Shown here piece by piece: positions 34,067-45,655 of a DNA stretch of 64,000 nucleotides; position 1 is the stretch's first letter; the number at the start of each line of letters is the position of its first letter. The notes under the pieces were generated by a model. It saw nothing but the letters and a program-made list of their open reading frames with translations, was not told the origin of the DNA and searched no databases. The DNA is from Candidatus Fermentibacteraceae bacterium (GTDB taxonomy: Bacteria; Fermentibacterota; Fermentibacteria; Fermentibacterales; JCC-6). The position numbers were made by a program, and so were the translations under genes. The stretch covers positions 1 through 64,000 of the forward strand of contig JBGSZS010000020.1 in NCBI GenBank assembly GCA_041750285.1, read 5' to 3'.

Positions 34067-34639
34067 TCAGTCCCCGCCCGAAACGACAGAGAAACCGTCG
34101 GGGACCTCAAGATCGAAAAAGCTCCCGGGGATGGTTCCGTGAACCTCGAGACCGCTGAGCGACCATACCGTCTCATTGCCGTTCACGTCCGACGTTGCGA
34201 ACGTAACGGGAAGTGAATCCGACAGGGAGTAGCAGACATCCATGGCGGACAGCCCGCCCCCGAGATCGCCGCGGACGGATACGGTGACCATTCCGGCCCT
34301 GCTGGTTCCCTCGATGACCATGCCGTCACCATCTGCCCTGTTCAACAGGTGCAGGAACCCCTCGGGATTCGATTCACCGTAGACTATGACTTCGCCATTG
34401 AGCGGTTCGATGGTGAAGACCTGAATCCCGTCGCAGCCGGTAACCCTGCCCGGGGGATCCGCATACTCCAGCCTGAAGAGGTTCGGATGGGCCAGGCCCA
34501 GTGAGCCCGTTGTCGACTCTGTTTCCCTTGTAAGGGCCCATGTTTCGGTCTGGATGAATTCACCCGTGAGAAAAACGGTATTCGCAAGCTTCGAGGTAAG
34601 AGGATCCAGAAGACCCGCGATGACAAGCAGAATCAGCAT
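34067..34639 (-). CDS. lolA: LolA-like outer membrane lipoprotein carrier
   Basis: EFIQT, G.L....PNLFRLEY, CDG..V..EP, D.NGNET; located in ftsK-rimO cluster. Confidence 0.72.
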   Translation of the reverse strand: MLILLVIAGLLDPLTSKLANTVFLTGEFIQTETWALTRETESTTGSLGLAHPNLFRLEYADPPGRVTGCDGIQVFTIEPLNGEVIVYGESNPEGFLHLLNRADGDGMVIEGTSRAGMVTVSVRGDLGGGLSAMDVCYSLSDSLPVTFATSDVNGNETVWSLSGLEVHGTIPGSFFDLEVPDGFSVVSGGD

Positions 34640-34666: not shown

Positions 34667-35278
34667 TTATTCAAGTACCGCGTCCGTGCCCACTACGATC
34701 ATCACACCGCCGCAACCCGGTTCAACGGCATCTATAAGCCCGCCGCCGCCCTGATGTTCCACCACTTGCGGCCTGAAGAGCCAGAGACTGAGCGAATCGG
34801 CAAGCATCCCCGCAACGGCATCGTAACCCTGCCTGTGGAGTACGACTGTCACTTCGGGTGCGTCCGGGTCGAAGACTGTGTTCACGGAACACCCGAGAAG
34901 GGTCAGTCTGCCGGCAACCCATTCCATCACCGGTCTTCCCGCGGACTGGCCCACAACAGTCACCGCAAGGCCCCTGAACTCCTCGGGAAGCGGAATCCCA
35001 TCCTCTCCCCCTTCGCCTTCGCGAAGTTCGCCGTCTATCCGTCTGACCGCGAGCCTCGCGTCATCGGCCAGGGGCGAGTCCGAAAACCTGTAGACGACCC
35101 CGTTGAACTCCTCGCGGGAAGCGGAGAGACTTCCCCTGAAATAGAGCTGCGCCGCCCTGGCAAATTGACCGGGGGCTGAAGCGTCGGCCACCAGTCCGTC
35201 CTGGTCGGTCCCTTCGGCCGCCCCCCCGCAGGAGAGCGCAAGAAGAATTGTCAGGGAACAGAGAAGCATGATTCTCAT
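34667..35278 (-). CDS. Lipoprotein with BamD/YfiO-like TPR and probable LytR_C-like C-terminal domain
   Basis: Lipobox ALSC; F..VV.RF.DSPLA.DA; VTVVG....VA..L...G..V, TVV.H..GY..VA..LA, MIVVG.D. Confidence 0.6.
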   Translation of the reverse strand: MRIMLLCSLTILLALSCGGAAEGTDQDGLVADASAPGQFARAAQLYFRGSLSASREEFNGVVYRFSDSPLADDARLAVRRIDGELREGEGGEDGIPLPEEFRGLAVTVVGQSAGRPVMEWVAGRLTLLGCSVNTVFDPDAPEVTVVLHRQGYDAVAGMLADSLSLWLFRPQVVEHQGGGGLIDAVEPGCGGVMIVVGTDAVLE

Positions 35279-35291
35279 CTGGACTCGTCTC

Positions 35292-37523
35292 CTATTCATC
35301 ATCAGACAGAACGGGGCCTGAATCGGGCTTCTGAAGAACCTCGCGCGCCTTGCTTCCGCAGTAGGGGCCCACGACTCCGGTCTGCTCCAGCATCTCGAGC
35401 AGCCGGGCCGCCCTGGTGTATCCAACCTTCAAACGCCTCTGCAGAAGCGAAGCCGAGCCCCTCTGGTAGGTCACAACGACCCTTCTGGCTTCCTCCAGAA
35501 GCGGATCGTCGAGGGAAAGGTCTCCCGTCACGTCGGATCCGTTCTGCTCATCGTCGCCGGGTTCGTAATCGTACGGCATGTGCGGCTGCGCCTTCCAGAA
35601 GACGACCAGTTCCTTTATCTCGCGGGAAGAGACGAATGAGCCGTGAACCCTCACGGGATCGGGAGCCCCCGCAGGCATGAAGAGCATGTCGCCCTGCCCG
35701 AGAAGCTTTTCGGCGCCGTTCATGTCGAGGATCGTTCTCGAATCGGTCTTGGATTTCACATTGAAGGCAATTCTCGACGGAAAGTTGGCCTTGATCATAC
35801 CCGTGATGACATCGACCGAAGGACGCTGGGTTGCAACCACCAGGTGAATCCCCACTGCCCTGGCCTTCTGGGCGAGCCTTGCGATCGGCTGCTCTATGTC
35901 GTTGCCGAGAACCATTCTCAGGTCGGCGAGCTCGTCGATGACCGCCACGATGGAAGGCATGGTGTCCGGCGTCTCGGTGGAATCCTCGGTTCCACGCCCG
36001 GCACGGTCGGCAAGGATCGCGCTCCTTATGTTGCCGTTGTACTCGTCAATGGACCTTACGCCCTGGCGGGTGAGCAGCGCGTACCTGTCCTCCATCTCCC
36101 TTACGAGCCTGTCCAGAAGAGCCTTGGCCCGCTGGGGATTGAGGACCACCGGAGCCCACAGGTGCGGCACGCCCTCATAGATGGAAAGTTCGAGCATTTT
36201 GGGATCGACCAGTGCAAGTCTCACCTGACTCGGGGTTCTGGTCATGAGTATGGACGTAAGGATGGAATGGATGCAAATGCTCTTGCCGCTTCCGGTCGCG
36301 CCGGCTATCAGCAGGTGGGGCATGTCGGCTATATCAACCACAAGGGGTTTTCCCTCGGCATTCTTGCCAAGGGCAACGGGTATCCTTTCGTTCTCCACCG
36401 AGACCAGGACCTCGCGAAGGTAGACCATTTCCGGGTTCTTGTTGGGCACTTCGATCCCCACGGTGCCCTTCCCGGGAATGGGCGCAAGTATCCTTATCCG
36501 CTTGGCAGCCAGCGCAAGCGCCAGGTCATCGGCCATGTTCACTATCCTGTTGACCTTCACCCCAAGACCCGGCGTCAGTTCATACCTGGTCAGCACCGGG
36601 CCTGCGCAGACCGTGCTCTCAAGACGGCACTCGATGCCGAAATCACCCAGTTTCTCCACAAGGGTGGCGCCCCGTTCCTGAATCTCCCTGGCGGACTGCC
36701 GTGTCCGCTCACCTGGAACGGGCATTTTAAGGCACTCGATGTCCGGAAGGGTGTATGCCGTCTCATCCCTGTCACCTGGCTCGGGCTGAACCGGCGCCTT
36801 TGTCTGCACCTTCGGACGGGGGGCCGTCCGTGCCGGCTCCGCTTCGGGTGTTTCGCGGAAAGGTTCCGGACGCGGGGAATCGTGGTAGAGAACCTTGACC
36901 TCGGGTTCGGTTTTGACGGGAACGGTTTCCTTCCGTACCCAGGGGCTGGAAACCGTTTCGGGGATGGGTTCGATGGTTTTGACCGCGACCGGTTTTGGTC
37001 TTCCGGACCGGGTCATCATCCTCCTGAAAAGGTTTTCGAGGTCGGTGCCCATGTCCCACCCCGTCAGGACGGCGACCGACGCGGTAAAGAGAAGGAAAAG
37101 AGCGAGCCATGTCAGGACTCCTCCCATGATCCCCTCGAGAGCCACCACGAGCTTGAGAACGAGCATGCCTCCGGGAAAACCTGCAGCGGAAGGACAAAAG
37201 CGCGCCAGAACGCAGGTGACCGAAGCTGCCAGGAAGAAGAGGGTCAGAAAAACACCGAACGTGATCCGCAACCATCTCGATGCAAAACCAAAACCGATGC
37301 ACAGCGCCCCGAGAAGGAAAATGACCGGCGGCACAAGAAAGGCCAGCAGCCCCACGGCATTCCTGAGTGTGCTTCCCAGAGCAACGAGAAGGCCGGCTCT
37401 GGATGGCGGGAAGGAAACGGCCACGAGAACCGCAAGGGATGCAAAGACCGCCAGAAGGAACGCTATCTTTCCCATCGGGTGGGTTCTGCGCGTCCTGCCC
37501 TTTTTTGCGGGTTTTCTGTTCAT
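35292..37523 (-). CDS. ftsK: DNA translocase FtsK
   Basis: N-terminal TMs, [53 protein letters not shown], gamma domain LQRRLKVGYTRAARL. Confidence 0.97.
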   Translation of the reverse strand: MNRKPAKKGRTRRTHPMGKIAFLLAVFASLAVLVAVSFPPSRAGLLVALGSTLRNAVGLLAFLVPPVIFLLGALCIGFGFASRWLRITFGVFLTLFFLAASVTCVLARFCPSAAGFPGGMLVLKLVVALEGIMGGVLTWLALFLLFTASVAVLTGWDMGTDLENLFRRMMTRSGRPKPVAVKTIEPIPETVSSPWVRKETVPVKTEPEVKVLYHDSPRPEPFRETPEAEPARTAPRPKVQTKAPVQPEPGDRDETAYTLPDIECLKMPVPGERTRQSAREIQERGATLVEKLGDFGIECRLESTVCAGPVLTRYELTPGLGVKVNRIVNMADDLALALAAKRIRILAPIPGKGTVGIEVPNKNPEMVYLREVLVSVENERIPVALGKNAEGKPLVVDIADMPHLLIAGATGSGKSICIHSILTSILMTRTPSQVRLALVDPKMLELSIYEGVPHLWAPVVLNPQRAKALLDRLVREMEDRYALLTRQGVRSIDEYNGNIRSAILADRAGRGTEDSTETPDTMPSIVAVIDELADLRMVLGNDIEQPIARLAQKARAVGIHLVVATQRPSVDVITGMIKANFPSRIAFNVKSKTDSRTILDMNGAEKLLGQGDMLFMPAGAPDPVRVHGSFVSSREIKELVVFWKAQPHMPYDYEPGDDEQNGSDVTGDLSLDDPLLEEARRVVVTYQRGSASLLQRRLKVGYTRAARLLEMLEQTGVVGPYCGSKAREVLQKPDSGPVLSDDE

Positions 37524-38050
37524 ATGCGCCTGACCGACCTTCCGTCCGGGCCTGCGGGAAAGAGGGAATCGGGCTTCTGTGCTCCGTCAACGCTGTAGGC
37601 GTAGTGCAGGAGCTGTCCGGAGTGAAGGGATATCTCGGCGACCCAGCTTCCGTCGGGCAGCTTCTGCATCGGGTTGACCACGGGGTTCCAGCCGTTCCAG
37701 TCGCCCACCACTGAAACCCTGCGTGCTCCGGGGTGCCCGAGGCACAGGAACTCGACTACGGTTCTTTCGGAAAGCCCCTTGTGAACTGCATCCTTCAGGT
37801 CATCGTAAGGGCGGAACACCGGTTTGACACGGGGCGGTATCTCCATCACGCCACCCTGACCGGGGTTCCTTGCCCTCCGCAACTTCCCCTTCTTCGTGGT
37901 GAAGCAGCCGAATCCCCTGAGAAACACGCTTTCACCGGCACAAAGCCTTTCCGTGATGATCGAGAGCAGAACGACGGTAAGCGACTGCACCTCGCGAACG
38001 GTGAGTCCCGTTCGTCTCGCAGCCTCCCGTGCAAGTTCCTCGCGCGTCAA
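37520..38050 (-). CDS. HU/IHF family DNA-binding protein fused to a C-terminal CBM48/AMPK-like (isoamylase early-set) glycogen-binding domain
   Basis: TREELA..A..TGL, GESVFLRGFGCF, ARNP...MEIPP..KPVFRP then PGARRVSVVGDWNGWNP..NPM.K..DGSW..EI.L..G...Y.Y.VDG; TTG 38050 (ORF also open from ATG 38083). Confidence 0.85.
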   Translation of the reverse strand: MTREELAREAARRTGLTVREVQSLTVVLLSIITERLCAGESVFLRGFGCFTTKKGKLRRARNPGQGGVMEIPPRVKPVFRPYDDLKDAVHKGLSERTVVEFLCLGHPGARRVSVVGDWNGWNPVVNPMQKLPDGSWVAEISLHSGQLLHYAYSVDGAQKPDSLFPAGPDGRSVRRI

Positions 38051-38122
38051 GCCGTCACCCCCCCGGATTGGGTATCTACTCATGCCATGAAGTTTTGAAT
38101 ATAGTCATAACCGGGGGGGAAG

Positions 38123-38671
38123 GTGCAGGGTCAGAACAACATGTGGGACAATATCAAACGGAACATCTGCTTTATCGCGGGCCCGCCGTTTTCGGGCAAG
38201 TCGACTGTCGGCGGCATCCTTGCGATAAGGCTTCGCATCCCGTTCAGAAACCTCGACGATATGATCGAGAAAGCCGCGGGCATGGAAATCCGCGACATTT
38301 TCGGAACCATTGGGGAACGCGGTTTCAGAAGCATTGAATCCAGAAGTCTCAAAGAGATCTCCGACTCCCCGGGACCGCTCGTCGTAGCGCTGGGCGGTGG
38401 AACCCTCCTTTTTCCCGGAAACCTTGAAACTGTCGTGTCGAGGGGGATCCTCGTAACACTCGCCCCGGATGAGACGGAACTCCTGACCCGTTTCGAGCTC
38501 TCCCGGGGACGCCCGCTCGTTCCCGATCACAAGTCACTTGAGGGTCTTCTGAAAGCCCGCCGGAAACACTACGACAGCCTTCCGGGAAGGATCGACACCA
38601 GGGGGAAGACCCCTGAAGAGGTGGCCTCCCTCATCGCTTCGAGCTTTGGTCTTCCTCTGATGCCTCTGTGA
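38123..38671 (+). CDS. aroK: Shikimate kinase
   Basis: GPPFSGKSTVG, LD..IE..AG..I.DIF...GE.GFR..E, VALGGG, RPL, R...Y. Confidence 0.9.
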   Translation: MQGQNNMWDNIKRNICFIAGPPFSGKSTVGGILAIRLRIPFRNLDDMIEKAAGMEIRDIFGTIGERGFRSIESRSLKEISDSPGPLVVALGGGTLLFPGNLETVVSRGILVTLAPDETELLTRFELSRGRPLVPDHKSLEGLLKARRKHYDSLPGRIDTRGKTPEEVASLIASSFGLPLMPL

Positions 38672-39641
38672 GCCCGGCCCTGGCAATCGTCTCCCGTGCG
38701 TGCGACAGCCCCACGAAGAAACGGTTCGTGTAAAGCGTGTAATCATCCCTGAGACGGGGTGGGGTCATGTTCACCGTGATGACGTTGGCACCGGCTTCGA
38801 AACAACGGTACTGCCCGTCGGGCAGAAGCTTCTGAAAGGTGCTGGTGGCGGGGATCAGGGTGTTCCCGAGATAGAGCCGCATTGCAGCGATGAACCTCAG
38901 TCCGAGCTCCGGGTCACCGCAGGGGTGACCGGCAAGAGGGGTGCCCGATGCCGGCATGAAGACCGATACGCTGGACATCTGCACCCCCAGCTCCTTCATG
39001 AGAAGCAGGTCGCCCACCAGGCTTTGGATGGTCTGTCCGGGCAGTCCGAGAAGGGTGCCTGAACCAACGCTGTATCCATGCTTCTGAAGGAGTCTGAGCA
39101 TCCCGATCCGGTCGCTCAGCGTGAAACCCGGTTTCATCCTTGCGAACAGACCGGCGTCGGATGTCTCGTGCTTCAGGATGAACTTGCCCGCGCCGGCGGC
39201 GTGCCAGTCATCGAGATCCTGCGTGTTGTGGAAGCCGACACAGAGGATGACCTCCATTCCCAACCGAGAAATGCGCCCGATCACCTCGGTCAGCCAGCCC
39301 GACTCGTAGGTTTCGCTCTCCGCGGCCTGCAGGAAAAACGTTCTGATCCCGTTCCTGAGGGCGGTTTCGGCGGTCCCGACGATCTCGTCGGCGTCGAGCT
39401 CATACCCCGCGGCGCCCTGATTGCCAAGGCGCATTCCGCAGTAGAGACAGCTGCAACGGCATCTGTTTGCGAACTCGATGACGGCCCTGATGTAGGCTTT
39501 GTCGCCGAAGTGCCGTCTTCTGACCTCGACCGCCTTCTCACGGATCAGCTCGAAATCACTTTCGTCGGATTCCAGAAGGGCCCTGAGATCATCGGGCGAA
39601 AAGCCCTTTTCAAGCCTTTCATCGATCCAGCAGCGTTTCAC
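38631..39641 (-). CDS. HydE-like radical SAM enzyme ([FeFe]-hydrogenase maturase family / BioB-like)
   Basis: IEFANRCRCSCLYCGMR, KHETSD, GSG.LLGLPGQT, F.P..GTPL, IPATS, GANVI..N.TP..LR..YTLY (YxxY). Confidence 0.8.
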   Translation of the reverse strand: MKRCWIDERLEKGFSPDDLRALLESDESDFELIREKAVEVRRRHFGDKAYIRAVIEFANRCRCSCLYCGMRLGNQGAAGYELDADEIVGTAETALRNGIRTFFLQAAESETYESGWLTEVIGRISRLGMEVILCVGFHNTQDLDDWHAAGAGKFILKHETSDAGLFARMKPGFTLSDRIGMLRLLQKHGYSVGSGTLLGLPGQTIQSLVGDLLLMKELGVQMSSVSVFMPASGTPLAGHPCGDPELGLRFIAAMRLYLGNTLIPATSTFQKLLPDGQYRCFEAGANVITVNMTPPRLRDDYTLYTNRFFVGLSHARETIARAGLTEASEEDQSSKR

Positions 39642-40393
39642 CCGAAAAACCTCCTGACATGATTCAGTGCAGTCCGGAACAGCTCGTCCCGAACCGTGAG
39701 ACCCGTCCAGAAGGAGAAGGACAATGCCGCCTGCCGTACGAGCATGGACTCACCGGTTATCACCGGTATTCCCCTTGCCGACAGGCTGTTCCTCCACCTC
39801 CAGCCCGGGTTGTAGTTCAGATCCATGAAAGCCCATCCCACAGGCGGGGTCAGGGGAAAAGGATCGTCGTTCCTCCAGCCCAGGGGTGTGGCGTTCACCA
39901 CGGTGCCGACCTCCCCGGCAAGGTAGCTGACAGCCCGGGAGAACGGCAGATGTTCAGGCCGGGAGGGGTTTCTCGTGAACACACGGTACTCGCGTCCCTC
40001 GAGAGCGGCGCATACCGCCTGTGAGGCCCCTCCCGCGCCAACCACGGCGAATGGGGACGGCAGCCCGGAGGCTTCGAACGAAAAGGCCTCCGTATCAGTG
40101 TTGTGGCCGAGAAGAAGGCCGCATTCGGTCTTCACTGCGTTCACTGCACCGGTAGCATCCGAGGCGGCCGTTTTACTGTCGCACAGTTCGAAAACGCGCC
40201 TCTTGTATGGCATTGTGACGTTGAGCCCCCGGTAATCCCCTTTCCTGAGCGCGTCAAGCACAACCCGCAGAGATTCCGGGGGTGTGGGCAGAAGCTCATA
40301 CGAGCCTTCGATGCCGCACTCCCTGAGAAACACCTCATGGATCACCGGAGAAAGCGAATGGGCGACCGGAAAACCGACAAGACCCAGTTTCAC
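39638..40393 (-). CDS. aroE: Shikimate dehydrogenase
   Basis: G.PVAHSLSP.IH, GLNVTMPYK, GAVNAV, GHNTD, GAGGA, NATPLG, DLNY, MLVRQA; GTG 40393 overlaps upstream stop. Confidence 0.92.
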   Translation of the reverse strand: MKLGLVGFPVAHSLSPVIHEVFLRECGIEGSYELLPTPPESLRVVLDALRKGDYRGLNVTMPYKRRVFELCDSKTAASDATGAVNAVKTECGLLLGHNTDTEAFSFEASGLPSPFAVVGAGGASQAVCAALEGREYRVFTRNPSRPEHLPFSRAVSYLAGEVGTVVNATPLGWRNDDPFPLTPPVGWAFMDLNYNPGWRWRNSLSARGIPVITGESMLVRQAALSFSFWTGLTVRDELFRTALNHVRRFFG

Positions 40394-41613
40394 GGGTGCC
40401 TCTTCCTTCTGATCCATGCGAAGAGCCTGAACATGGCGGCGGAAAGGCCACGGGGCGCGTGAAACACCGGTTCGAGGAGGTCGGTTCCAGGAGGAAGCTC
40501 GAGGGACATGGGACTTCCCGGGTATATCCTGATGGTGCCGATGTTCACGAAGGTGTCTCGGTAACCCAGGAACAGCCTTGCCCTGATCATGAAGAAGAGC
40601 TTCTGAAGAAGGGCGATGAACCCTTCTCCCGGATTCCCGTTGAAGAAGTTCACACCAACTGAAAGGCCGGCCTTCCTTGCGTTCCTGACGACGGAGTAAA
40701 GGGAACGCCCGTTGCCGGGCTTCCCCAGGAGACGAAGCCCCTTCTGCGTGATGGCGTCAGGGGAGAAGTCGACCCAACGGCACCCGTTTTCCCGGAGAAG
40801 GGTGAGGAAGTCGGAAGGGACCCCGTCCGACAGCCAGGCGCCCCACTCGAGCCCGGCACGCTTCTCCCCCACCGCGCGGGTCAGTTCCCGGGCGTACTGG
40901 AGGGGATGATCGAACACCGAATCAACGAACATGAAGGTCTTCACACCCAGCCGGCCCAGTTCAGCGACATCGGCAGCCACTGCATGCGCCGGGCGGAGCC
41001 TCCATGACCTGCCACCGATGTGCCCGTAGGTGCAGTATCTGCAACCGAAAGGGCACCCCCTGCGGCTCTGCACCCCGATGGCCCCCTTCCCGGGGTAGTC
41101 GGAAACGGGAAAGAGCGTGTAATCGGGGTTCAGGAGATCGGAGGTCGAAGGCCTGGCCGGCAGGAGCAGCCTGCCCGGGAGTGGACCTCCCCGCTCGATC
41201 GAGCCGATCAGCCCCGGGAAGGCAAGTTCCCCCTCCCCAGCCACACCGAAGTCGATCCGCGGCCACAGGGACAGGATCCTCTCCGCGTATATCGAAAAGC
41301 CGGGGCCGCCTGTGATCACGCTGCCGGAGAAGCCTGAAAGCTCGTCCATTATCTCTCCGAAGGCGTTGAGATATGACCAGGTGACCGGCCAGCTGCTGTC
41401 ATCTATGTTCCGGAGGGAGATGGCGGCAGCGTTCGGGCTGCAGGAATGCAGGGCCTGCCGGAGGTCTTCCCGGCAGTCCCGGGAGAGGCTGAGATCGATC
41501 CCCAGGCACTCGTGTCCCGAGGCCTTGAGGTGTGACGAAAGGAACGCCAGACCCAGGGGGTAGATCGGGGTCTCCCTTCTGCCGGTGGGAGACTGTATCA
41601 GGAGCACCTTCAT
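40390..41613 (-). CDS. Cobalamin-binding radical SAM protein
   Basis: YPLGLAFL, ISLRNID, GGPGFS, GEGE, QSRRGCPFGCRYCTY, FVDSVF. Confidence 0.88.
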   Translation of the reverse strand: MKVLLIQSPTGRRETPIYPLGLAFLSSHLKASGHECLGIDLSLSRDCREDLRQALHSCSPNAAAISLRNIDDSSWPVTWSYLNAFGEIMDELSGFSGSVITGGPGFSIYAERILSLWPRIDFGVAGEGELAFPGLIGSIERGGPLPGRLLLPARPSTSDLLNPDYTLFPVSDYPGKGAIGVQSRRGCPFGCRYCTYGHIGGRSWRLRPAHAVAADVAELGRLGVKTFMFVDSVFDHPLQYARELTRAVGEKRAGLEWGAWLSDGVPSDFLTLLRENGCRWVDFSPDAITQKGLRLLGKPGNGRSLYSVVRNARKAGLSVGVNFFNGNPGEGFIALLQKLFFMIRARLFLGYRDTFVNIGTIRIYPGSPMSLELPPGTDLLEPVFHAPRGLSAAMFRLFAWIRRKRHP

Positions 41614-41635
41614 GAAACCACCCTTCCCGGGGGAT

Positions 41636-41663
41636 TTGACCGGACCGGAATAAAAACTATAAT
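41636..41663 (+). promoter_or_regulatory. Putative sigma-70 promoter of the CAP/HD-GYP operon, probably leaderless
   Basis: TTGACC (41636-41641), 16 bp, perfect TATAAT (41658-41663); in-frame ATG at 41671. Confidence 0.7.
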
Positions 41664-41670
41664 GAAAAGC

Positions 41671-42585
41671 ATGGTAAGCGGCCTGATCTCGACGCTGGTG
41701 ACCGCGGCAGCCCTGTCGGGGGGAAGGTACGCATCCCTTGACAGTCTGGCATCGTCCATAATGAAACTCGACCGGATACCCGCCGGCGCCGACCTTCTGC
41801 GCCATGCCGCAAGGGCCGGGTGGTTCTGGCCCCTGGGCGCCGTAGAGGTGCAACGGGAACCCGCGGGGACGATTCCCGATTCCCTCGCATGGGGTCTTGC
41901 GGAATCCGATGAGGGAGTCTGTCTGGTAACCGCTCCACCACCATTGTTTTCGCTTCTGCTACCCATACCGGCCTCTGTGGAACCCGGCGACACGGTCCGT
42001 GTCATGCCCGCCGGTGATCCGCCGGAAATGCGTGGAGCGGTTCTCTCACCATCCCTTCAGATCCTGCCGGTCGCTGGGGGGACCATCGTACCAGACCGCG
42101 AGGGAACATGGTGGCTCGAGTTCATGTCCGAGACCGATTTCGGACCCCAGGTCCAGATGCTCACCCCGATCGCCGTGGGAGCTCCGGGTGCGTGGCCGGG
42201 GAATGGGTGGAGTGGAACCGAGATCCTCAGGGGATTGAACAATCTGAGAGGAAAGCTGCGGGTTTCCGCCCTTTCGGAAAGCCCGTTCCTCAACGGGCTG
42301 GCCTCACTGAGAGCGAGACAGGCGAGAAGCTGGGGAGGTGCGTTCCACAGTTACCCGGGCAGCGCCGGAACCAGTGAGATGATGCCCCCATCGTACGGAG
42401 GGTGGGCCGAGAACATCGCCGTGGGTTCCAGCGTTGCGGAGGCAGTTGAAATGATACTGATAAGCCCGTTTCACCTGGCGTCGTGCATCGACGGCAGGTA
42501 TTCATTCATGGGCATGGGAAGCGTTTCGGGCCACGAAGGGACAGTTCTCGTGATCATTCTCTCCGAGTCATCGGGAAACCAGTGA
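41671..42585 (+). CDS. Exported CAP (SCP/PR-1) domain protein
   Basis: Signal peptide; LN.LR....L...L..LA, FHS, WAENIA.G, SPFH, YSFMGMG. Confidence 0.8.
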   Translation: MVSGLISTLVTAAALSGGRYASLDSLASSIMKLDRIPAGADLLRHAARAGWFWPLGAVEVQREPAGTIPDSLAWGLAESDEGVCLVTAPPPLFSLLLPIPASVEPGDTVRVMPAGDPPEMRGAVLSPSLQILPVAGGTIVPDREGTWWLEFMSETDFGPQVQMLTPIAVGAPGAWPGNGWSGTEILRGLNNLRGKLRVSALSESPFLNGLASLRARQARSWGGAFHSYPGSAGTSEMMPPSYGGWAENIAVGSSVAEAVEMILISPFHLASCIDGRYSFMGMGSVSGHEGTVLVIILSESSGNQ

Positions 42586-44132
42586 TGAGAGGTGCAGGCT
42601 CCTCCCTGACGGTTGCCCTGTCCATGCTGGCCGGCATCATCACAATTGCCGGAGCGGTCTGCTTCGCCGTTAATCCAGTGGTGACCCTCATACTTGCCAT
42701 CACCGCCTTCGTGAGCTCGGGGATCCACATAATCTACCGCGACCGCGAGTACGAGACCCTTCACACCATGCTGATGTTCCTGTGTTTCTGGTACGGCGGC
42801 CCGGTTTCCGGATTGTTCTCGGCGCTCATCCTTGCCTCGGGTTCCGTACAGGGTGCGACGGGTACACCCAGAGCTGGGGTGTTTCACATTGTCACGTCGG
42901 TCCAGGCCCTTCTCATCCTGCCCTTTGCCCTTCTCCTCCCCCGCAGCGGGCTTGCCTTTCCTTCGCCGGCCTACCTTCTCCTGATCCCCCTGCTCTACCT
43001 CGCCAGAAGGCTTTCTTCAACCGGGCCTTCCGCAGGGCGGTTCAGGAACCTGGCATTCCTTGGCTTCCTGACCAACGTACCCGCAGTCCTCCTGGCGGTT
43101 CATCTCACCGACACCTTCGGCCCCGCCGCAACCGCCTTCCTCTGCCTGCTCTGCATTCTCTACCTCTTCCTCGTCCGGAAGGAGACGGCCGAGATCGGCA
43201 GGCGCACCGTCCGGCTCATGAGGCTCACTGAGCACGACATGATCTCCCGCGAGCTGCTTTCGGCTTCCTCACTCTCCGCCTTCGTTGCAGCCATAGAAAC
43301 ACTCACGGGAGAGGGGTTGTCGTTCTACGAGAAACTCCCCGATGGCTGGAGCGTCTGGACCTCGAAGGGATGCAGCGCTGCCGATGATCCCTCCGCGCTC
43401 CACATCAGGGGTCCTGTCTTCGTTCCTGCATGTGTTCAAGGTCTTTGGATCGCTGCGGAGGGTGAGGCCGCGCTCAGGATATCGACCCTTTTTGCCGATG
43501 AAATTGTCGATTTCGGCGAGCAGATAGCACGGTCATGGCAGGTTGTCTCGGCCAGGATTCACCAGGAAGAGGCGCTTTTCAGCGTGGCGCTCCTTCTGGC
43601 GCGCATAGCGGACCTGAAGGACAGGTACACGAAGATGCACTCACTCAGGGTTGCGGGTATTTCAACATCCATTGGCCGGGAACTTGGTCTTTCCGACACC
43701 GAGATCAGCATGCTCAGAACCGGAGCGCTCCTTCACGACATCGGAAAGGTCAGCCTTCCCTCAGAGATCCTGGGGAAGAAGGGGATACTGACCTCGAGGG
43801 AAAGAATGGTCATCAAAAGCCATCCCGTTGAGGGCGCGGCACTGGTTTCAAGGCTCAGCCGCTTTGCAAGGGCTGCCGAAACCGTTCTGCATCACCACGA
43901 GAGGCTTGACGGAAGCGGATATCCAACAGGCCTGAGGGGTTCGGCCATCCCGCTTCACAGCAGGATCGTGGCGGTCGCCGACACCTTCGATGCCATAACG
44001 GCGTACAGGCCCTACCATCCCGAGGTCCAGTCCGGGAACGCACTGAAGGAGATCCAGGCGGGTCGCGGCACCCTGTACGACGCCCGGGTTGTGGATGCTC
44101 TCGGACACCTGGTGGAGAGGGGAACATGGTGA
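42585..44132 (+). CDS. Multi-TM membrane HD-GYP phosphodiesterase with intact motifs
   Basis: Multiple hydrophobic N-terminal segments; KDRYTKMHSLRV, LLHDIGK, HHERLDGSGYP, AVADTFDAIT.YRPY. Confidence 0.9.
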   Translation: MRGAGSSLTVALSMLAGIITIAGAVCFAVNPVVTLILAITAFVSSGIHIIYRDREYETLHTMLMFLCFWYGGPVSGLFSALILASGSVQGATGTPRAGVFHIVTSVQALLILPFALLLPRSGLAFPSPAYLLLIPLLYLARRLSSTGPSAGRFRNLAFLGFLTNVPAVLLAVHLTDTFGPAATAFLCLLCILYLFLVRKETAEIGRRTVRLMRLTEHDMISRELLSASSLSAFVAAIETLTGEGLSFYEKLPDGWSVWTSKGCSAADDPSALHIRGPVFVPACVQGLWIAAEGEAALRISTLFADEIVDFGEQIARSWQVVSARIHQEEALFSVALLLARIADLKDRYTKMHSLRVAGISTSIGRELGLSDTEISMLRTGALLHDIGKVSLPSEILGKKGILTSRERMVIKSHPVEGAALVSRLSRFARAAETVLHHHERLDGSGYPTGLRGSAIPLHSRIVAVADTFDAITAYRPYHPEVQSGNALKEIQAGRGTLYDARVVDALGHLVERGTW

Positions 44133-45655
44133 CCGACAGGGACCAGAGCCGCCCCGTATCACCTTTCATCGCAGCCGGTCTTCTTGCGGCAGCGCTATGC
44201 GTCGGAACCCCCTCTGCTCAGGGCATAAGCCTTCAGCAGCTTCCGGTTATGCTTGCCCTTTCCTCCTGCCTTCTCGTCTCGGTTCTGTTCACCGGCAACT
44301 CTGCTTCGGGCTCCCCCCTGAACACATTTCCATTCGCCCTGTCAATGGCGGTCACACTGCAGGGTTCCATGCCTGCCGCAATCGTATTCGCGCTTGTCAC
44401 CGGCTACGGCACCTTCTTTCTTGAGTCCAGCCGCGGCGGCGAGAGAACGCACGGCAGAAAGAGGGCTTTTGAACTTTTCGCGTCTGTCTTCCTCCTTTCC
44501 CGTGCACTTTCATTCACAAGGTTCCAACTGGAAGGTACGGATTTCGTCCACGGGCTTCCGATGAACATCCTTTCGCTGGTGCTCCTCACATGGCTCGCCA
44601 TGGCAGGGATGCGGCTGCTTCCGGCACCAAGGGAACTCAGGACATACTGGAACACCCATGTCCTGTTCAACCTCATTCCCATGCCCATGGTCATCCCAGT
44701 GCTTGAAGCCAGGGATGATCCGGAATCACTTCTGATACCCCTCGCTGGAACCGTCTTCCTCGTGGGCATAGTCCAGCTTGGTGCGTTCCTTCTGACGACA
44801 AGGCGCAGGGCGATCGAGCGCGGAATGGACATGGAGAGAGCCCTGGCCGAGCTCACAACGGAGTTGTCCACCGCCGGATCGGTGGCAACGGCGTTGAAGA
44901 TGATGCTTGAAAAACTGCTCAAGGGAAGCGGTGCTTCGAGGGTTACGGTCACCAATGCGAACCTGTCCGTGTCATTGCCGGTCAAACCATCTCCATCGGC
45001 GTGCACGGTCAGCAGAAGCCTCGCCGGGCTCACAGCCGTCCTCGATTACCCTGTGATGCCCCTGGTGAGCCCTGAGAGAGTCGATGCGTTCCTCACCAGA
45101 ACCGCCGTCATGCTTGAATGGATGGTTGTGTCCGAAAGCATCACCAGGGAAACATGGGAGAGCATTGAAGCCCTTGTGCTGTCACTTGAGAAAACCGATG
45201 AGAAGGTGGCAGACTTCAGCAAAAGGGTTGCAGCCACCGTAACCGAACTGGCCGAAAGGCTGGGTTTCGACAGCTGGTCGGTCAATTCGCTCAGGGTCGC
45301 ATCTCTCCTCCACGCAGGATCAGCGGCCATCCTGGGCGGTCTGGGGAACGAGGAGCCGCAGGCCATAAAATCGATGGGCCTTCCCCCCCTGACCATAGAC
45401 GCCCTCAGGTACCATGGCGAATGCTGGGACGGAACTGGAACCAACGGCCTGTCCGGGGAAGGTATCCCCATAAGCGCCAGGATCCTGGCTGCAGGCATTG
45501 GTTGGGAGAAAGCCTTCGCTGCGGGCGGTCTGAAAGAATCCAGCCGCGCCATGAGAATGGCAAGCGGACTCCTTTACGACCCCGCCCTTGCTTCCCTGCT
45601 TCTCGAGTTGAAGTCCGGGCGGCAGGGCCGCCCGGACACTTCCGTCAGTGGCTGA
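44126..45655 (+). CDS. Multi-TM membrane protein with degenerate HD-GYP domain
   Basis: TM N-half; EALV.SLE..D...FSKRVA, LLHAG, YHGECWDGTGTNGLSGE.IP.SARILAA, YDP.L. Confidence 0.8.
   Translation: MVTDRDQSRPVSPFIAAGLLAAALCVGTPSAQGISLQQLPVMLALSSCLLVSVLFTGNSASGSPLNTFPFALSMAVTLQGSMPAAIVFALVTGYGTFFLESSRGGERTHGRKRAFELFASVFLLSRALSFTRFQLEGTDFVHGLPMNILSLVLLTWLAMAGMRLLPAPRELRTYWNTHVLFNLIPMPMVIPVLEARDDPESLLIPLAGTVFLVGIVQLGAFLLTTRRRAIERGMDMERALAELTTELSTAGSVATALKMMLEKLLKGSGASRVTVTNANLSVSLPVKPSPSACTVSRSLAGLTAVLDYPVMPLVSPERVDAFLTRTAVMLEWMVVSESITRETWESIEALVLSLEKTDEKVADFSKRVAATVTELAERLGFDSWSVNSLRVASLLHAGSAAILGGLGNEEPQAIKSMGLPPLTIDALRYHGECWDGTGTNGLSGEGIPISARILAAGIGWEKAFAAGGLKESSRAMRMASGLLYDPALASLLLELKSGRQGRPDTSVSG

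Follow-up and report, generated by a model that had tools for sequence, protein, structure and literature searches.

A 64,000-nucleotide stretch of DNA from a Candidatus Fermentibacteraceae bacterium (contig JBGSZS010000020.1, positions 1 to 64,000; referred to below, at its full length, as the window) encodes on its minus strand a protein in which an HU/IHF-type nucleoid domain is continued, within one reading frame, by a β-sandwich of the CBM48/AMPK-beta type. The gene of this protein, here called HU-CBM48, overlaps the start of ftsK, recurs throughout the phylum Fermentibacterota and lies in a genome that carries glycogen genes. No bacterial chromosome protein is more widespread than HU. 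To our knowledge, few accessory domains are known on it, namely lysine-rich tails and the winged helix–turn–helix, immunoglobulin (Ig) and Gly-rich extensions of Bacteroidetes, and we know of no cultured member of Fermentibacterota. A carbohydrate-binding-type module that has been kept on an HU paralogue over the whole history of a phylum would mean either a link between nucleoid and glycogen or a CBM48 fold put to another use. The reading that we prefer, at a rough probability of 0.4, is that HU-CBM48 acts as a dimeric bridge between DNA and α-glucan that keeps glycogen on the nucleoid, by analogy with PhaM and PhaF, which serve polyhydroxybutyrate (PHB) in this way.

Two domains in one reading frame

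The open reading frame (ORF) occupies 37520..38083 on the minus strand and encodes 187 residues when counted from its ATG, the numbering used throughout. About 70 homologues are 176 residues long, and their first residue corresponds to residue 12 of the query, a TTG at 38050. Inspection of the sequence revealed a G-rich stretch upstream of this TTG and nothing resembling a Shine–Dalgarno sequence before the ATG. Since the homologues begin at the TTG and the G-rich stretch precedes this codon only, the true gene is probably 37520..38050, with a TTG start and a product of 176 residues; this is also the interval given in an initial annotation of the DNA, which had been made from its letters alone. 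At the other end of the gene, bases 37520-37523 of the plus strand read tcat, that is, ATGA on the minus strand (37520..37523), in which the TGA stop of HU-CBM48 overlaps the ATG of ftsK. The initial annotation had described both this overlap and a single continuous ORF holding an HU fold and then a CBM48-like domain. The bases themselves confirm the former, and the latter is borne out by Pfam, the structural model, structural matches and conservation; the motifs that it had quoted (GFGCF, RARNP, PVFRPY, ARRVSVVGDWNGW, MQKLPDGSW and YAYSVDG) are all present in the translation.

Residues 12-100 match Bac_DNA_binding (PF00216) over model positions 1-89 of 90, with an E value of 2.4e-19 and 69.8 bits against a cut-off of 22.4. 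In NCBIfam, sub-threshold matches to IHF-alpha/beta and HU were obtained for the first half of the protein and to GlgB for the second. An AlphaFold2 model calculated from 72 sequences (mean predicted local distance difference test score, pLDDT, 90.7; predicted template modeling score 0.68) places helices at residues 14-25, 29-48 and 94-104 and β-arm strands within 53-92, with a pLDDT of about 90 in this half. Foldseek matched the modeled first half to HU and IHF structures, the best being 5lvt_A (E 4.1e-7, TM-score 0.84 by target length). By every measure of sequence and fold examined, the domain formed by helix 1, helix 2, the β-arm and helix 3 (residues 12-104; 37772..38050, minus strand) is a member of the HU/IHF family. 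Its β-ribbon DNA-binding arm (residues 59-92; 37808..37909, minus strand) carries R69, R70, R72 and P74, each of which is identical in 72/72 family sequences; we take P74 to be the counterpart of the DNA-intercalating proline of HU/IHF proteins and the arm arginines to be DNA contacts. The HU half would thus be expected to dimerize and to clamp and bend DNA through its β-arms like other members of the family. Across the 72 sequences, the median pI is 9.96 for this half, which is basic, and 6.49 for the near-neutral C-terminal domain. The same genome contains two plain HU genes that score 105-107 bits against PF00216, compared with 71.6 bits for HU-CBM48 in the same genome scan, and HU-CBM48 is therefore a third, diverged HU paralogue.

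In the model, an all-β domain begins at residue 107, directly after helix 94-104 and without a disordered linker, its first strand spanning 107-114. This β-sandwich (residues 105-187; 37523..37771, minus strand) is assigned to the CBM48/AMPK-beta type from its Pfam match, structural alignment and conservation. CBM_48 (PF02922) is matched by residues 118-169 with a marginal pass (E 3e-5, 24.7 bits against a cut-off of 22.4), and AMPK1_CBM (PF16561) by residues 119-175 at 20.6 bits, below its cut-off of 26.8, which is passed in some homologues (P0069, for example, reaches 28.8 bits). VIA-align searches with modeled residues 106-187 placed the glycogen-binding domain of AMPK beta1 at the top (1z0m_B, Z 12.6, root-mean-square deviation 1.5 Å over 76 aligned residues). 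Other AMPK/SNF1 beta chains, SEX4 (Z 11.2), CBM48-CE1 esterases and the CBM48 of E. coli branching enzyme (Z 11.6, 31% identity) also matched, and all 50 entries listed are CBM48-type modules, from α-glucan enzymes, AMPK/SNF1, SEX4 or CE1 esterases. A profile of 24 C-domains likewise matches GlgB and AMPK beta chains (E 2e-6 to 7e-6). Its predicted fold, and marginally its Pfam score, thus make the C-domain a CBM48, and it should best be termed CBM48-like pending proof of binding. Its invariant elements are the loop LPDGSW (142-147), Y161, D166-G167, D172 and R185; the loop L142-P-D-G-S-W147 is, in the alignment, the most invariant element of the family. Over the 72 sequences, pairs share on average 0.62 of their residues in the HU half compared with 0.54 in the CBM half; on these values, both domains are under comparable constraint throughout the phylum.

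Further cysteines and relatives were noted alongside. C60, in GFGCF, is Cys in 69/72 sequences, and C48 and C114 are Cys in 60-90% (window positions about 37742-37942); with conserved cysteines in both domains, an inter-domain contact or a metal site is conceivable. Many long proteins among the matches (P0075-P0112) have strong AMPK1_CBM scores and contain 2-17 tandem AMPK1_CBM/CBM48 repeats, up to 17 matched stretches in the 1812-residue P0075; no catalytic domain was found among those scanned against Pfam. Small stand-alone CBM48-like frames also occur in three of the Fermentibacterota genomes (G018, G011 and G069), and in the last of these a 127-residue frame lies about 3 kb from a glgA match (G069:C65:25372-25560 and G069:C65:21949-22554).

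Distribution and genomic neighborhood

The fusion is not confined to the window. A protein search returned 74 proteins among 327 candidates, of which 71 are full-length two-domain proteins of 176-208 residues; the other three are a 135-residue fragment, a 196-residue chimera with WD40 matches and a 122-residue frameshifted form. Named homologues come from Candidatus Fermentibacteria, Sabulitectum and Aegiribacteria, and identity throughout the phylum is 50-60%. A scan of species-representative genomes gave 61 loci, 59 of them of the Fermentibacterota type and two from Bacteroidota that match the HU half alone. In a phylum sample of 70 genomes, which comprises a single order with three families and 14 genera, a strong C-domain match within a frame of about 170-215 residues was found in 63, one per genome. 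Five of the seven genomes without such a match (G032, G028, G033, G030 and G060) have plain HU genes only, and in these the C-terminal half of ftsK lies in open frames of 424-687 residues compared with 743 here, so that, as far as the sequences tell, the absences look like contig breaks inside or before ftsK. The 5' half of the window ftsK encodes a Pro/Glu-rich linker, and it is in or just before this half of the gene that the assemblies seemingly break.

The initial annotation had made its case depend on the fusion being genuine and present in relatives, and had asked for read support over the junction near 37770; the recurrence was found, and so were contigs across the junction. Such contigs come from four sequencing runs in three studies (X1; X2 at 37534-38038; X3 at 37723-37928; X4 at 37679-37936), although the X1 run may itself be the source of the window DNA. 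With 59 independent public loci, 63/70 genomes and junction-spanning contigs in four runs, we reject an assembly or chimera artefact. Two assemblies carry disrupted copies: in G043:C3:519-766, two adjacent partial HU-CBM48 matches indicate an apparently frameshifted or split gene, and P0074 is the 122-residue out-of-frame form (L061 is a Ca. Sabulitectum silens record). The frameshifted or split copies in two assemblies are possibly sequencing errors.

Outside Fermentibacterota, no combination of HU and CBM48 was detected among the 120 matches listed of 137 in a profile search of longer proteins; all 73 PF00216-bearing matches among those 120 belong to the HU-CBM48 family (E <= 1e-22), and the next ones (E >= 2e-11) carry no HU domain. 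In a phmmer search with the C-domain, of which the best 150 of 1453 matches were considered and 37 scanned against Pfam, HU occurred only in P0113 and P0069, both of the same family. The Atlas holds one HU+CBM48 cluster, labelled Fermentibacterota, whose automatic name gives both domains. A word-based search with residues 105-187 returned eight close relatives only and is uninformative on spread. The architecture and spread that the initial annotation had wanted surveyed thus proved to be phylum-wide in Fermentibacterota; none was seen elsewhere among the matches listed, which does not prove absence. Database labels read 'HU family DNA-binding protein' or 'nucleoid DNA-binding protein' only. 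The initial annotation knew of no characterized fusion of this kind, and our literature search likewise found no published description of one; in a survey of the HU superfamily (PMC5499826), the words 'carbohydrate', 'glycogen' and 'FtsK' are absent from the main text, the supplement lying outside this search.

The overlapping ftsK gene (35292..37523, minus strand) encodes 743 residues, with an N-terminal membrane part, an α domain (PF17854, FtsK_alpha), a β motor domain (PF01580, FtsK_SpoIIIE) and a γ domain (PF09397, FtsK_gamma; NF007615 E 2.7e-122). It is followed by a conserved gene of no recognized family (34667..35425, minus strand), for which no Pfam or NCBIfam match was obtained. The translation contains what resembles a signal peptide with a Cys at its end, and the product is probably a lipoprotein that starts at an ATG near 35299-35302, in overlap with the end of ftsK. 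Next comes a gene for a lolA-like lipoprotein chaperone (34067..34639, minus strand; PF03548; TIGR00547 E 7.3e-13, below cut-off). Upstream, the divergent neighbor is the shikimate kinase gene aroK (38123..38671, plus strand; PF01202, E 2.8e-29).

This arrangement is conserved. In 58/59 related loci ftsK lies directly downstream on the same strand, the exception being a contig that ends inside the HU gene; the lipoprotein-type and lolA-like genes follow ftsK in 53/53 loci that reach that far, the other 6/59 ending earlier. The order HU-CBM48, ftsK, lipoprotein gene, lolA is kept on one strand in every sufficiently long related locus, and wherever the alignment of FtsK extends to one of its first three residues (17 loci), the HU and ftsK genes overlap or lie at most about 37 nt apart. 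Shikimate kinase adjoins the HU gene in 54/59 loci, divergently in 46 and co-oriented in eight (L049, L052, L054-L057, L059 and L060). Because aroK flips in these eight while the HU–ftsK order is kept, the unit can be taken to start immediately before the HU gene. The promoter must lie in the gap of about 40 nt between the shikimate kinase and HU-CBM48 genes; a scan of the region upstream of the HU gene for σ70-type promoters gave no consensus match. Part of the order conservation may reflect shared descent, since all loci fall into one order-level group. The linkage to ftsK is genomic, and HU-CBM48 may on this ground be tied to division physically or functionally.

Farther off in the window, radical SAM/BATS, shikimate dehydrogenase and B12-binding radical SAM genes stand in a row upstream of aroK (38631..41853, minus strand), and two adjacent HD_5 (HD-GYP-type) genes encode 549 and 509 residues (42483..45655, plus strand), the second with a weak match.

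Proposed role and competing explanations

Storage granules have been tied to the nucleoid in other bacteria: PhaM and PhaF bind both the PHB/polyhydroxyalkanoate granule and the nucleoid and are required for even granule inheritance (PMC9049629). In E. coli, glycogen goes to the old poles by nucleoid exclusion and can itself exclude the chromosome (PMC4836754), and in plants PTST and FLO6 are non-catalytic CBM48 scaffolds that localize their partners to starch (PMC4339375, PMC6243121). The genome of the window encodes a GlgA-type glycogen synthase, a CBM48-bearing GH13 enzyme and a phosphorylase, and for Hyd24-12 genomes the earliest genomic work on the phylum reported all of the glycogen pathway and no other route of storage (PMC5030696).

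On the reading that we prefer, HU-CBM48 is a specialized HU/IHF paralogue of Fermentibacterota, of which an HU-type dimer would clamp and bend chromosomal DNA through its β-arms. Helix 3 runs without a linker into the sandwich, and the dimer would therefore show two CBM48 modules flanking the DNA-bound body. These two modules would hold α-glucan, either glycogen particles or nascent chains, and avidity on a multivalent particle could offset a weak or non-canonical glucan site. Glycogen would then stay on the nucleoid instead of being excluded to the poles, and would be positioned and inherited with the chromosome. The gene would be co-transcribed with ftsK, whose product acts when the chromosome is cleared and the cell divides.

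The glucan-binding step was judged by mapping the C-domain onto 1Z0N through a HMMER alignment (a 96-residue chain, index 1 being residue 68), in which W132 corresponds to Trp100, position 162 to Lys126 and position 169 to Trp133. In AMPK beta, Trp100 and Trp133 form a stacking pair, Lys126 and Asn150 donate hydrogen bonds and Leu146 and Thr148 make further contacts; mutation of Trp100 and Trp133 abolishes the effect of cyclodextrin on AMPK (PMC9788615). Similarly, the equivalent double Trp mutant of PTST lost starch binding (PMC4339375). The Trp100 equivalent is well kept in the family, W132 being Trp in 69/72 sequences. The invariant loop also has a counterpart elsewhere: in a phmmer alignment (E 4e-4), LPDGSW pairs with Leu117-Asp-Tyr119-Gly120-Lys121-Trp122 of human GBE1, of which Tyr119, Gly120 and Lys121, together with Trp91 and Pro93, contact bound acarbose and maltoheptaose (PMC4581599). 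The loop therefore sits at a known sugar-contact position of CBM48, and branching-enzyme CBM48s do carry binding sites (PMC6243121).

Several observations weigh against glucan binding, and with it against the bridge. Position 169, equivalent to Trp133, is Trp in only 7/72 sequences (Leu in 33, Arg in 14, and Gln in the window protein), and position 162, equivalent to Lys126, is Lys or Arg in 17/72 and Ala in the window protein. Among the three AMPK-beta signature positions that could be mapped, only the Trp100 equivalent is conserved in the alignment. From the aligned ranges, D172 is followed by 15 residues to the end of the protein, compared with 19 from Asp136 to residue 155 in AMPK beta1; the segment holding AMPK Leu146-Asn150 thus appears to be about four residues shorter in HU-CBM48. 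The GBE1 contacts are mostly replaced as well, with Tyr119 and Trp91 changed to Asp and Gly and only the Gly matched family-wide, and for several GH13 debranching enzymes, whose CBM48s are often devoid of the canonical residues, binding of sugar by these modules has yet to be demonstrated (PMC6243121). GlgA is present in 68/70 Fermentibacterota genomes, so near to universal that its co-occurrence with the fusion is uninformative either way. A last point comes from the closest relatives without HU, which are small stand-alone 'isoamylase early set' proteins and proteins of about 200 residues. Two of the stand-alone relatives were read, P0174 and P0203, and they also lack the Lys126 and Trp133 equivalents. 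In P0207 and P0213, each of about 200 residues, a Cys/His-rich N-terminus, for which Pfam named no family, and a hydrophobic segment precede a C-terminal CBM48-like domain of the same subfamily. By this layout they look like anti-sigma-like membrane proteins with an extracytoplasmic CBM48-like sensor; if that is right, the subfamily also acts outside the cytoplasm, where there is no glycogen. Glucan binding is accordingly uncertain on these alignments, and is the weakest part of the interpretation offered in the initial annotation. The most specific version of the bridge, in which glycogen is tethered to the nucleoid through a site other than the AMPK pincer, perhaps around W132 and LPDGSW, so that the only carbon store of the cell is positioned under ftsK-tied expression, seems rather unlikely.

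The main rival makes the C-domain an adaptor for a protein or for some other ligand that is not glucan: the HU half would place it on DNA, and the sandwich would recruit a partner in segregation or division, perhaps FtsK or a further product of the operon. HU-CBM48 would then be an accessory nucleoid protein of division or segregation, unconnected with glycogen. In favor of this, most of the canonical sugar contacts are absent, and LPDGSW finds no counterpart in the sequence of AMPK beta, whose aligned stretch reads TRS-QNNF. Gene order and strand are fixed with ftsK (58/59), the lipoprotein gene and lolA through overlaps or short gaps, and the HU–ftsK order is kept even where the orientation of aroK changes in eight loci. 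The AMPK beta CBM also contacts the kinase domain, and so offers a protein–protein precedent within the fold. Nevertheless, the sampled phylum consists of a single order with three families, and its gene order may partly be shared descent; the sequence relatives of the C-domain are overwhelmingly modules associated with α-glucan, and the Trp100 equivalent has been kept in 69/72 sequences. We consider an adaptor somewhat less likely than the bridge.

The same evidence of fold and homology that suggests a DNA–glucan bridge would also accommodate a nucleoid protein that senses glucan. By analogy with AMPK beta, binding of maltodextrin or glycogen ends would alter bending or compaction by HU, so that chromosome architecture or transcription follows the carbon store. 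Ligand binding could reach the HU body through the linker-free junction of helix 94-104 and strand 107-114 in the model, and cyclodextrin at the glycogen-binding domain inhibits the AMPK kinase allosterically (PMC9788615). However, the residue-level doubts about glucan binding apply here equally, nothing points to a regulon or to allostery, and a tight operon with housekeeping genes is unlike that of a regulator; we consider sensing to be quite improbable.

Least probable is a role in which the C-domain blocks or constricts the cleft for DNA, so that HU-CBM48 would no longer act on DNA and the HU clasp would serve another ligand. In the Bacteroides HU-Ig structure 4FMR, the Ig domain partly fills the space for DNA (PMC5499826), and weak matches to PF18291 (HU-HIG) do occur in many homologues. 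However, the arm R/P residues are identical in 72/72 sequences and the HU half is strongly basic, neither of which would be expected had DNA binding been lost. The family is also single-copy and evolves slowly within a conserved operon, contrary to what has been described for HU-HIG genes (PMC5499826), and its profile does not match 4FMR at E <= 0.01. The structure is also absent from the Foldseek and VIA-align rows listed and from the profile matches at E <= 0.01, which is not proof that the folds differ. That the C-domain makes contacts of its own with DNA is unlikely in our view, because its median pI is 6.5 compared with 10 for the HU half.

Comparison with known systems

HU-CBM48 shares with classical HU/IHF proteins (PF00216) a full-length model match, the fold and an arm with the R..R[ND]P motif. 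It differs from them in its additional 83-residue C-terminal β-sandwich, a lower PF00216 score and a near-invariant Cys in GFGCF (69/72). A close architectural parallel is the Ig-fused subclade of the HU-HIG clade of Bacteroidetes (4FMR; Burroughs et al., 2017, PMC5499826), which also joins HU to a C-terminal all-β Ig-like module and likewise comes from the Fibrobacteres–Chlorobi–Bacteroidetes group of phyla. HU-HIG genes, however, have expanded in particular lineages, diverge rapidly and keep no conserved linkage (PMC5499826), whereas HU-CBM48 is single-copy in a fixed operon conserved across the phylum, and its C-domain is specifically of the CBM48 type by sequence and predicted fold. The PF18291 match of the window protein stays below the cut-off (19.0 bits against 26.2; model positions 32-87 of 125), and although P0113 reaches 36.3 bits, its Bac_DNA_binding score is about twice as high. 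On these grounds, HU-CBM48 is not a typical HU-HIG protein.

Among CBM48 modules, that of AMPK beta (1Z0M/1Z0N) is the top structural match and shares the FN.W tryptophan and the Y...VDG...DP framework. Identity is only about 21%, the Trp133 and Lys126 equivalents are unconserved and the Leu146-Asn150 segment is seemingly shorter; furthermore, the module is fused to a DNA-binding domain in HU-CBM48 rather than to a kinase scaffold. The CBM48s of GH13 branching enzymes (E. coli GlgB and human GBE1) show the highest sequence similarity and share the P-M-..-L-..-G-.-W stretch, but HU-CBM48 has no catalytic domain and replaces Trp91 and Tyr119 of GBE1 with Gly and Asp. PTST and FLO6 resemble it as non-enzymatic proteins in which a CBM48 anchors another activity to α-glucan. 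In them, however, the CBM48 is joined to a coiled coil by which starch enzymes are bound, not to a DNA-binding domain, and both of their tryptophans are conserved and required.

The proposed logic is closest to that of PhaM of Cupriavidus necator and PhaF of Pseudomonas putida, in which a histone-like DNA part is combined with a polymer-binding part (PMC9049629). The likeness is a functional analogy only, since the folds are unrelated and the polymer is another one; function has been demonstrated for PhaM and PhaF, whereas the role of HU-CBM48 is proposed by analogy. The placement and sharing of glycogen at division is a real problem that a tether would address, as glycogen in E. coli drifts to the old poles at a cost (PMC4836754). 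If such a tether holds true, HU-CBM48 would be the first nucleoid-anchoring system described for glycogen, would add a new class of ligand to the HU family and would be the glycogen counterpart of PhaM and PhaF.

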